The notes beneath the pieces were generated by a model. That model had not been told where the DNA came from. It did not search any database and saw nothing but the letters and a program-made list of their open reading frames with translations. From the IMG/VR virus record IMGVR_UViG_2675903609_000003: a stretch of DNA of 11,155 nt; one strand, 5' to 3'. The DNA comes from a virus. Lineage: Duplodnaviria; Heunggongvirae; Uroviricota; Caudoviricetes. Shown one piece after another: positions 3,857-4,751 of the stretch (positions are counted from its first letter, which is position 1; the number at the start of each line of letters is the position of its first letter). Made by a program: the position numbers and the translations under genes.

Positions 3857-4751
3857 TCTTCTGCTCGATTTTGGACATCCGGTTGCTTATTACCCTGGGC
3901 TCGTTAAATACATGGGAAGTCCGCACGCTGTTATTTTCTTTGGTCAGATTTTTTACTGGCAGGATAAAGCACATGCAGCGGAAGGCGTACATAAAACGCG
4001 TGAAGAGATACAACACGAAACCGGACTTACATTTGAACAACAGGCTGTAGCGCGTAAGCATCTTGTGTCCAGAGGCATTTTGGTTGAAACCAACAAGCGT
4101 CTTGAGCACAAAATGTTCTACCGTATAGATTGTGAGCGCCTTAATGAAATTATCAATGAAAACAATCAGTTTTCCCGAAATGGGGAAACCCGTTTTCGGG
4201 AAACTGTAAAACCCAATTTCGCGGAGGAGGGAAAGCCTTCACCGCGGACACGGGAAACCCCTCGCCGCGGAGAAGGGAAAACCAATTTCGATCTTACAGA
4301 GAATACAACAGAGATTACTTCAGAGAATACTACAGAGAGTAAAAACACTATTGGCGCATCCGCTGACGCGTCTGCACCAGCGCGTTCTTCCCGACAGGAA
4401 TATTCACCGGAATTTGAACAGGCCTGGCAGGAATATCCAAAACGTGCTGGTGGTAACTCAAAATCCGCAGCCTTCAAAGCCTGGAAAGCCCGGCTCAGGG
4501 AGGGAATAAAACCTGAAGCCATGCTTGATGGCGTGAAACGCTATGCTGCCTGGGTACGTGCCACAGGAAATACCGGCACACAGTTCGTGAAGCAGGCTGC
4601 GACGTTCTTTGGACCCGATCGTCACTTCGAAGACTTCTGGCAACAGCCAGCCGCTCCCAGAGGTGGGCGACAGCGACAGGTCGATGTCCTGGCTGGCCTG
4701 GGAGCCATGTCTGACAAATTCGGTAAATCCAGTGACAAACTGACATTCTGA
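3843..4751 (+). CDS. replication initiator / replisome organiser (lambda O-like architecture)
   Basis: ATG 3843 with GGAGGT 4 nt upstream. N-terminal globular domain, low-complexity linker encoded by DNA repeats (4171-4340), conserved-looking C-terminal domain; directly upstream of coupled DnaC-like and DnaB-like genes. Confidence 0.55.
   Translation: MRPSDLLLDFGHPVAYYPGLVKYMGSPHAVIFFGQIFYWQDKAHAAEGVHKTREEIQHETGLTFEQQAVARKHLVSRGILVETNKRLEHKMFYRIDCERLNEIINENNQFSRNGETRFRETVKPNFAEEGKPSPRTRETPRRGEGKTNFDLTENTTEITSENTTESKNTIGASADASAPARSSRQEYSPEFEQAWQEYPKRAGGNSKSAAFKAWKARLREGIKPEAMLDGVKRYAAWVRATGNTGTQFVKQAATFFGPDRHFEDFWQQPAAPRGGRQRQVDVLAGLGAMSDKFGKSSDKLTF
4171..4340 (+). repeat. iteron-like repeats plus AT-rich 12-bp periodic repeats inside the O-like gene (putative ori)
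   Basis: GGGAAA(N)CC at 4183, 4198, 4229, 4252, 4275 plus inverted TTTCCCGAAA at 4171; 18-bp direct repeat CGCGGAG(G/A)AGGGAAA(G/A)CC at 4220-4237 and 4266-4283; AAAAC(C)CAATTTCG at 4208 and 4278; then (A)CAGAGA every 12 bp at 4296, 4308, 4321, 4332 in AT-rich DNA. Confidence 0.45.

Follow-up and report, generated by a model that had tools for sequence, protein, structure and literature searches.

A candidate replication origin of 23-bp iterons and tandem 12-mers within the initiator gene of a lambdoid prophage

Bacteriophage lambda carries its replication origin inside the gene of its initiator, O, where four iterons spaced 20, 24, and 23 bp apart are followed by an AT-rich tract (PMC7466680). 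In phage SPP1, oriL is located in gene 38 and combines direct repeats with an AT-rich DNA-unwinding element (DUE), the genes of the helicase loader and the DnaB helicase come next, and the system has been validated in vitro (PMC6316719). Here, we describe a locus of this design in a Caudoviricetes sequence of 11,155 nucleotides (IMG/VR virus record IMGVR_UViG_2675903609_000003), the whole of which is called the window below. Judging from its sequence, the segment at 4171-4352 is very probably the replication origin of a prophage, lying within the part of its initiator gene that encodes the linker.

Compared to the origins of lambda and of 933W and other Shiga toxin (Stx) lambdoid phages, the locus shows several common features. 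First, it occupies the central part of the initiator gene, which encodes the linker connecting a presumed DNA-binding N-terminus to a presumed recruiting C-terminus. Second, its iterons are about two helical turns apart (here 23 bp) and are followed on the 3′ side by a putative AT-rich unwinding region. Third, the N-terminus and the origin appear to act as one specificity module. In contrast to lambda, the locus has five units at a strict 23 bp with mostly weak dyads, the part predicted to melt is a conserved tandem 12-mer instead of a plain A/T tract, and a DnaC-type loader and a phage DnaB take the place of P and the host DnaB. An initial annotation of this DNA, made by a model from the letters only, had called the gene O-like and the layout a mirror of lambda. 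The layout bears this out; the name "O-like" can be kept only as an analogy, since the protein has no detectable homology to lambda O. PF04492 (Phage_rep_O) gave no match at E ≤ 10 for either domain of the protein, hhalign of the N-terminal profile against lambda O gave a probability of 0.2%, and the only cross-matches were weak ones to mixed PHROGs (phrog_678 at 2.4e-4 for the N-terminus). As a separate observation, the AT-rich tract of lambda ori (L252 520-575) contains AAAAGATTATTC and TCAGAGAATTC, which faintly resemble the 12-mer core and may do so by coincidence.

The likeness to SPP1 concerns the order of three genes, encoding the replisome organizer G38P, the loader G39P, and the DnaB helicase G40P, with the origin inside the first of them. 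Furthermore, the C-terminal region of G38P resembles, by eye, the Phg_2220_C-type C-termini of some relatives in the initiator family described here (L004, L007, and L204). SPP1 differs in its GAAACGACA-type repeats, in an AT-rich part without the AGAGATTAC 12-mer, and in a loader of a different family; hhalign of the N-terminal domain against G38P gave a probability of 0.2%, and only the design and the gene order are common to both. By analogy, the candidate origin would work like those of lambda and SPP1, while in sequence it is a member of neither group.

Repeat arrays in the linker-coding region

Five 23-bp units, starting at 4171, 4194, 4217, 4240, and 4263, form an array at 4171-4285, and each follows the pattern TTTCSSGRA-N3-GGGAAANCC. 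The box GGGAAANCC is exact on the plus strand at 4183, 4229, 4252, and 4275, and the in-register copy at 4206, GTAAAACCC, differs by two mismatches; the five direct copies of GGGAAA(N)CC that had been annotated are thus four exact copies and one degenerate copy. The inverted copy annotated with them is present with one mismatch at 4168-4176 on the minus strand and is actually the left half of the dyad of unit 1. An 18-bp near-perfect repeat at a distance of 46 bp was found as described, CGCGGAGGAGGGAAAGCC (4220) and CGCGGAGAAGGGAAAACC (4266) being identical at 16 of 18 positions.

Elsewhere in the whole window, GGGAAANCC has only 2 exact matches. With up to one mismatch allowed, 23 matches were counted, compared to 9.7 +/- 3.3 in shuffled sequences, and 0 of 200 shuffles reached 23. 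The repeat finder gave a period of exactly 23 bp (Tandem Repeats Finder (TRF): period 23, score 73), and the self-match at lag 23 was 62/92 against shuffle maxima of 37.1 +/- 1.7 (highest value 42). Iteron arrays are recognized by three or more direct repeats about two helical turns apart, and here there are five at exactly 23 bp.

A sixth "TTTCG" at 4286 leads into GATCTTAC, which is followed by four 12-bp units beginning at 4296, 4308, 4320, and 4332 with the consensus ACAGAGAWTACW. ACAGAGA is exact at 4296, 4308, and 4332, and the unit at 4320 reads TCAGAGA; four ACAGAGA units at exact 12-bp spacing had been proposed, and the spacing is correct with one of the four copies altered. TRF reported a period of 12 with 3.7 copies and a score of 67, and the lag-12 self-match was 28/36 against shuffle maxima of 18.8 +/- 1.1 (highest value 23). 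The tandem-repeat analysis that the initial annotation had suggested accordingly finds both arrays above every shuffle, and in the periodicity statistic, computed without the run of N letters at 10266-10369, lags 23 and 12 gave the two strongest signals in the window.

The DNA of the 12-mers, described beforehand as AT-rich, has a GC content of 33-38% and is AT-rich relative to its flanks only. Among the 40-mers in 10.2 kb, that at 4313-4352 ranks second lowest in stability (dG -44.6 compared to a mean of -55.3 +/- 3.4, about 3 standard deviations above the mean), so that an easily melted region adjoins the iterons. The number of 12-mers varies between near-identical E. coli alleles, with four copies in L008 and L009 (306 amino acids (aa)) and three cores in the window, and in two further E. 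coli alleles (L056 and L057) the repeats persist although the initiator gene is frameshifted. A scan for promoters and terminators gave no signal beyond chance, and a transcriptional element was dropped as a reading for this reason. Rfam at E ≤ 1 found no RNA family in 3600-4900 except one chance long noncoding RNA match.

The placement of the repeats within the linker-coding part of an initiator gene, as first annotated, was confirmed. In the open reading frame (ORF) at 3843-4751, they encode aa ~110-167, the first ~60 residues of a linker (aa 108-184) that is predicted to be disordered, with a predicted local distance difference test (pLDDT) score of ~30 in the AlphaFold (AF2) model, which was built on 27 homologues. 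In this model, the N-terminal domain (aa 18-106) consists of helices 27-42, 53-60, and 64-76, a beta hairpin at 80-95, and a helix at 97-106, with a pLDDT of ~73-79 across most of residues 21-80. Its most conserved part is the predicted recognition helix, EQxxARKxL, and its best Foldseek matches are generic winged-helix DNA binders (all E > 0.02, none significant). The N-terminus matches phrog_9773 at 4.4e-32 and phrog_6493 at 8.2e-8. The C-terminal domain matches phrog_1701, a "DnaD-like helicase loader", among others, and also occurs in initiators with unrelated N-termini. Pfam and NCBIfam have no family for the whole initiator or for either domain alone, a PDB sequence search with the initiator returned nothing relevant, and the RefSeq copy of 99.8% identity is labeled "LvrA C-terminal domain-related protein".

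Profile matches, the placement of the domain at the N-terminus, and the neighboring helicase and loader genes place the protein in a superfamily of winged-helix phage initiators (PHROGs 9773/270/6493/428/391/678). The N-terminal domain family contains 3674 clusters (50% identity) at E ≤ 1e-3; among the best 150 of these 3674 clusters, nearly all matches begin at the N-terminus and the proteins are mostly 250-400 aa long. The peptide footprint of the 12-mers is found near residue 140 in at least 94 of 134 full-length representatives of the family.

Conservation and modular exchange of the repeats

Searching phages with the N-terminal domain by tblastn identified relatives in phages of Burkholderia, Pasteurella, Aggregatibacter, Klebsiella, Acinetobacter, Salmonella, Vibrio, and Pseudomonas. 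The six loci retrieved first have a periodic array downstream of the N-terminal domain, with a 23-bp period in each case in which the repeat finder reported one, and then repeats of 12 or 13 bp. For 80 IMG/VR loci and 43 loci from species-representative genomes retrieved next, lags of 23 and of 12 or 13 nearly always gave the two highest autocorrelation values in the linker region. A reduced set of 39 homologues with N-terminal domains at most 90% identical covered several phyla, with Enterobacterales, Burkholderiales, Pasteurellales, Neisseriales, Acinetobacter, and metagenome-assembled genomes (MAGs) of Terriglobia. In this set, the best lag was 23 bp in 33 homologues, 22 bp in 4, 24 bp in 1, and 21 bp in 1; 32 periodic arrays (lag 21-24) had z > 4, and 36 of the 39 had at least two AGAnTAC cores spaced 11-14 bp. 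A lack of the repeats in homologous initiator genes had been named as an observation that would speak against an origin, and the repeats are present there. The 12-mers are always directly 3′ of the iterons, and the arrangement behind the N-terminal domain varies in neither order nor position. The iterons vary by lineage with a persistent period and TTCGGGRA core, and the junction stands at a constant distance, reading CGATCyTAC in enteric relatives and CGTTAAyAC in others.

Several observations bear on whether DNA or peptide is conserved. First, with a period of 23 bp, successive units fall in codon phases 2, 1, and 3, and therefore no peptide repeat is possible. Second, the 12-mers of the window are read in frame as TENT-TEIT-SENT-TESK, whereas several lineages, including Pasteurellaceae, Neisseriales, Snodgrassella, Vitreoscilla, Suttonella, and Salmonella phage 118970_sal3, have the AGAnTAC core at a spacing of 11, 13, or 14 bp, which shifts its translation to other frames (LDY..RLH, GDYT). 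Third, the Thr codons within the 12-mers are ACA (57), ACT (39), ACC (2), and ACG (1), compared to 107, 63, 96, and 109 elsewhere in the same genes, so that 96 of 99 end in A or T in the 12-mers compared to 170 of 375 elsewhere (97% vs 45%). The test used Thr third positions alone; Glu codons were left out as circular, since the search pattern forces GAG. Fourth, nucleotide identity between the window and seven homologues is 0.66-0.84 for the junction and 12-mers, 0.61-0.77 for the N-terminal domain, and 0.50-0.74 for the iterons. Because the units span all frames, the core is read in other frames, the Thr third base is biased, and the nucleotide identity is higher, we conclude from these comparisons that the repeats are under selection as DNA, with the constraint strongest at the 12-mers.

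In all 11 relatives of the Burkholderia group (Burkholderia, Paraburkholderia, and Caballeronia; L095-L097, L099, L100, L102-L107), a DnaA box of consensus or near-consensus sequence, TGTGGATAA (TGTGGACAA in L096), lies inside the ORF, 31-43 bp after the last 12-mer (~2025-2121). Plasmid paNv_UK10 of Arsenophonus nasoniae (36.9 kb, circular, non-mobilizable, rep_cluster_1971) carries a homologous initiator (L260 3471-4316) with 23-bp TTCGGGGAA-type units and AAGAGATTACTAC repeats, ~1 kb from parM/parR; the same initiator occurs on seven further Arsenophonus plasmids. Both the DnaA boxes and the plasmid-borne copy are consistent with an origin, circumstantially in the case of the plasmid. An Anaerolinea MAG contig (L128 ~1781-1990) has nine perfect copies of a 21-bp unit, CATGTTGAAAATTCAGCATCA, replacing the 23-bp iterons, and the array is followed by an AT-rich stretch with GATC-containing repeats instead of an AGAnTAC core.

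Mosaic relatives show how the parts of the gene are inherited. L17 of phiP27 has an unrelated HTH_36-type N-terminus and is ~95% identical to the window from ~4349. Its own, different repeats (TGAMCCKTCAGAWTCTG five times and TTCAAAACATGATCCGCAAG twice at 24 bp; L131 2084-2256) stand at the equivalent position and end at the joint with the window-type C-terminal module. Genes of the L148 type combine another N-terminal family and its own iterons with at least 87% identity from ~4323, and in P0047 a third N-terminus is joined to sequence identical to that of the window, starting with the 12-mers. These alignments indicate that, in three independent mosaics, the N-terminal domain and the iterons are exchanged together and the C-terminal domain is exchanged separately. 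Such joint exchange is the pattern expected if the N-terminal domain has its cognate sites in the iterons. The lambda design would then recur in an initiator family without detectable O homology, with N-terminus and iterons as an exchangeable specificity module.

When IMG/VR was scanned for pairs of cores at a distance of 12 bp, at least 120 loci were obtained with the tandem form AGAGAWTAC-NN-CAGAGAWTAC (L132-L251; e.g., L137 1431-2430, L148 6573-7572, L242, and L245). Among 99 distinct ORFs that span the motif, at least 86 fall into five related N-terminal families of initiators, ~7 are truncated initiators, and 5 are unrelated coding repeats. All five families match one common PHROG set, and each has its own iterons, mostly of 22-23 bp. 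In phages of Gram-positive bacteria and Bacteroidota, the order is iterons, then "ATACC", then short repeats of the AGAGAnTAC or AGATA type (~990-1170 in each locus). In these loci, L253 (Staphylococcus phage Sebago), L254 (Bacillus TP21-L), L255 (Listeria), L256 (Bacteroides), and L258 (Flavobacterium), the iterons are 22-23-bp repeats built around CAAAATG, and the whole arrangement falls within "DnaD-like" or replication initiation genes. We found no description of the 12-mer or of the origin of this family in the searchable literature, and the motif searched as text matched only unrelated primer sequences. Collectively, these loci suggest that the tandem 12-mer marks the origins of several related initiator families, and it could serve as a cheap signature for locating origins in thousands of phage genomes.

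A bolder proposal is that ACAGAGAWTAC is no generic AT-rich tract but a specific and ancient element of the winged-helix phage and plasmid initiator superfamily, read sequence-specifically as a universal signal for unwinding and loading. We hold it tentatively, with the chances leaning somewhat against it. It would extend over Proteobacteria, Firmicutes, Bacteroidota, and Acidobacteriota, with the 12-mer always at a fixed distance 3′ of lineage-specific 22-23-bp iterons and within the initiator gene. The element would most likely be read as a single strand after melting, by a conserved surface of the initiator or by a replisome component. The partner proteins differ between lineages, which suggests the initiator domain itself, a conserved component of the host, or a purely physical role. 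With the 12-mer, the idea of a sequence-specific unwinding element becomes testable.

Plasmid replicons provide further points of comparison. Iteron plasmids (RK2, F, R6K, and pPS10) likewise combine ~22-23-bp iterons, a winged-helix Rep, and adjoining 13-mers that melt. However, their origins lie outside rep, their Reps belong to the two-winged-helix Rep_3 family, and they need host DnaA and DnaB, whereas the initiator of the window has no Pfam match to a Rep_3-type profile and contains the origin inside its gene. In RepA_N plasmids, such as pSK41 with its RepA, iterons occupy the central, poorly conserved part of rep, between a DNA-binding N-terminal domain and a recruiting C-terminal domain. 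Structures of the N-terminal domain of staphylococcal RepA (4pql, 4pt7, and 5kbj) are among the Foldseek matches, although weakly (E ~0.08, root mean square deviation 8-9 A); there is no sequence match to RepA_N proteins, which serve plasmid replicons and not phages. The Rep proteins TrfA and RepE have been reported to bind one strand of the DUE sequence-specifically (PMC4081077, PMC4980987), and this offers a possible model, by analogy, for the conserved 12-mers.

Proposed mechanism and alternative explanations

The sequences show periodic repeats that are conserved as DNA, a duplex of low stability, joint inheritance of the N-terminal domain and the iterons as a module, and neighboring replication genes; from these we infer a sequence of binding, melting, and protein contacts. 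The N-terminal winged-helix domain would bind the five iterons through their TTCSSGRA core and GGGAAANCC box. The resulting nucleoprotein complex would stress the adjoining, least stable DNA, consisting of the four ACAGAGAWTAC units, and this stretch would open. The helical C-terminal domain would then recruit the DnaC-like loader and the DnaB-like helicase, which are encoded directly downstream, onto the opened strands. The 3′ side of the iterons is the presumed side of melting.

Several observations weigh against this interpretation. A low-stability stretch on the left flank (4142-4181) provides a second possible side for melting. No DnaA box lies within 3870-4902, and the number of such boxes in the window is at chance level. 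Neither the PDB sequence search nor Foldseek gave a significant match of the N-terminal domain to any solved initiator, and no experimental evidence for any member of this initiator family was found in the searchable literature. Strong dyads, a hallmark of lambda iterons, are found only in unit 1 (6/6) and unit 3 (5/6); the other units score 2-3/6, and these scores do not support strict dyad symmetry for every iteron. Finally, this copy resides in a rearranged and partly decayed prophage with a Rha pseudogene and a hybrid junction, and the origin may therefore be silent in this strain.

The last point leads to the alternative that survives best, although we still consider it unlikely: the segment is an origin by descent that is now inactive, a fossil in a defective prophage. 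The prophage is a hybrid of two types joined at ~2772-2782, an arrangement that none of the complete E. coli genomes shows. The upstream Rha-family gene lacks its start and contains the stop Q117*, and the assembly contains the N-run. However, the ORFs for initiator, loader, and helicase have all remained intact, at 99.7-99.8% identity to their copies in other strains, and all five iterons and all four 12-mers are present.

A second alternative reverses or shares the roles of the two arrays. The 12-mers would be the primary specific site, recognized by a conserved surface of the initiator superfamily or by a host replisome protein, with the 23-bp units acting as enhancers specific to each lineage. 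Conservation is much higher in the 12-mers than in the iterons, the 12-mers are found with several related N-terminal families, and the most conserved part of the domain is its predicted recognition helix. That helix could, however, fit the conserved TTCGGGRA core of the iterons, and in validated systems the repeats bind and the AT-rich part melts (PMC7466680, PMC6316719). We regard this reading as improbable.

Still less probable, in our judgment, is that the repeats are initiator sites with a role other than initiation, such as autoregulation or a roadblock in the early operon, handcuffing in copy control, incompatibility or exclusion, or a mere hotspot of recombination at which initiator modules are shuffled. 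The mosaic joints do cluster at the 12-mers, and plasmid iterons are generally known to act in control as well (roles listed in PMC4980987). Such roles, however, normally accompany origin function and do not substitute for it. These three-gene modules have no other candidate origin, the repeats keep a fixed spacing from an easily melted element, the Burkholderia relatives add a DnaA box, and promoter and terminator signals do not exceed chance. It is scarcely credible that the repeats are a mere low-complexity linker peptide (TENT/TEIT, GET/RET) without DNA function: the region is translated, its 12-mers read T-E-(I/N)-T in most lineages, and the linker is predicted to be disordered, but the use of all three phases, the other frames at altered spacing, the Thr third positions, and a nucleotide identity above that of the folded domain all speak for DNA.

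Genomic setting of the candidate origin

The window covers the early and late-regulatory region of an E. coli lambdoid prophage resembling Stx phages. Bases 3600-5000 are 99.8% identical to a prophage of strain VL7S7 and 95-96% identical to Stx1a, Stx2a, and Stx2d phages and to phage ASU11. The N-terminal domain is 100% identical in Stx2_14040 (LC567818.1), the Eru7 reference Stx2a phage, and megablast aligned query bases 12-1070 (~3611-4669 of the window, repeats included) to this genome at 95.3%. Eru types are defined by the genes next to cI, the replication proteins being stated as not known, and the Eru papers mention neither an initiator nor an origin (PMC8951638). Eru7 is described as the most widespread type in Europe, and toxin gene dosage is driven by phage replication. 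The locus would provide a concrete origin and an initiator-loader-helicase module for a widespread group of E. coli prophages that includes Eru7-type Shiga-toxin phages. The features are collected in Table 1, in which the start of the loader gene was adopted from the RefSeq copy; the gene order is initiator, DnaC-like loader, and DnaB-like helicase.

Table 1. Coordinates of the candidate origin, the initiator, and the genes downstream of it
Feature	Position	Strand	Basis or remark
Iteron 1, TTTCCCGAAATGGGGAAACCCGT	4171..4193	+	Perfect dyad TTTCCC-N6-GGGAAA
Iteron 2, TTTCGGGAAACTGTAAAACCCAA	4194..4216	+	Repeat analysis
Iteron 3, TTTCGCGGAGGAGGGAAAGCCTT	4217..4239	+	Repeat analysis, TRF
Iteron 4, CACCGCGGACACGGGAAACCCCT	4240..4262	+	Repeat analysis, TRF
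Iteron 5, CGCCGCGGAGAAGGGAAAACCAA	4263..4285	+	Repeat analysis, TRF
Junction, TTTCGATCTTAC	4286..4297	+	Iteron-like start; GATC at 4290-4293; fixed distance to first 12-mer
Four 12-bp units, ACAGAGAATACA, ACAGAGATTACT, TCAGAGAATACT, ACAGAGAGTAAA	4296..4343	+	Candidate DNA-unwinding/helicase-loading element
Low-stability region, 12-mers and tail AAAAACAC	4290..4352		Nearest-neighbour energies
AT-rich low-stability stretch, left flank	4142..4181		Fourth least stable 40-mer; dG -45.5 vs -55.3 +/- 3.4
Mosaic joint zone (left, N-terminal domain and iterons; right, C-terminal module)	4323..4349		Alignments of mosaic relatives
Replication initiator gene, 302 aa, containing the candidate origin	3843..4751	+	phrog_270 "replication initiation protein", 2.5e-64
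Winged-helix N-terminal domain, aa 1-106, presumed iteron binder	3843..4160	+	AF2 model, Foldseek
Helical C-terminal domain, aa 185-265, presumed loader/helicase recruiter	4395..4637	+	pLDDT mostly 75-89; phrog_1701, phrog_26426, phrog_3729
DnaC-like helicase loader	4762..5640	+	IstB_IS21 1.6e-15; phrog_50 6.4e-90; NF005931 DnaC 1.4e-38 (under cut-off)
DnaB-family replicative helicase	5637..7028	+	DnaB_C 3e-72; TIGR00665 1.2e-91 (under cut-off); phrog_19 1.1e-114

Upstream of the initiator, the window is composed of two prophage types that meet at 2772-2782. Bases 53-2772 match a type with a toprim protein, NinB, NinE, and a RelE/ParE toxin-antitoxin pair, and the bases from 2782 onward match another with Rha and the initiator; both parts were found together at one place in 0 of 5426 complete E. 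coli genomes. The first codons of the Rha-family regulator gene (2766-3626, plus strand) are replaced at the junction, which makes it a pseudogene, and its in-frame stop Q117* is defined relative to the VL7S7 copy. A remnant of a second replication/nin module at 123-2075 (plus strand) contains the C-terminal part of a primase/helicase (phrog_239, phrog_5482), NinB (1492-1902), and NinE (1899-2075), and the window has two replication-type modules in tandem. The toxin-antitoxin pair occupies 2117-2744 on the minus strand, with an HTH_3 protein at 2117-2425; the Gp49/HigB-like toxin match is confined to the last 109 aa of a 224-aa ORF (2415-3089), the remainder of which is read-through over the junction.

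Downstream, the lysis region contains the run of 104 N at 10266-10369, after "gggctgt" and before "cggagaactg", which is an assembly gap or a masked stretch. Four tRNA genes at 8150-8460 (plus strand), with a CAT anticodon (Ile according to the RefSeq copy), Arg-TCT, Thr-TGT, and Gly-TCC, are located between Q (7534-7950) and the holin gene (8753-8968). In Stx phages, stx normally comes after this tRNA position; the window is without an stx gene.

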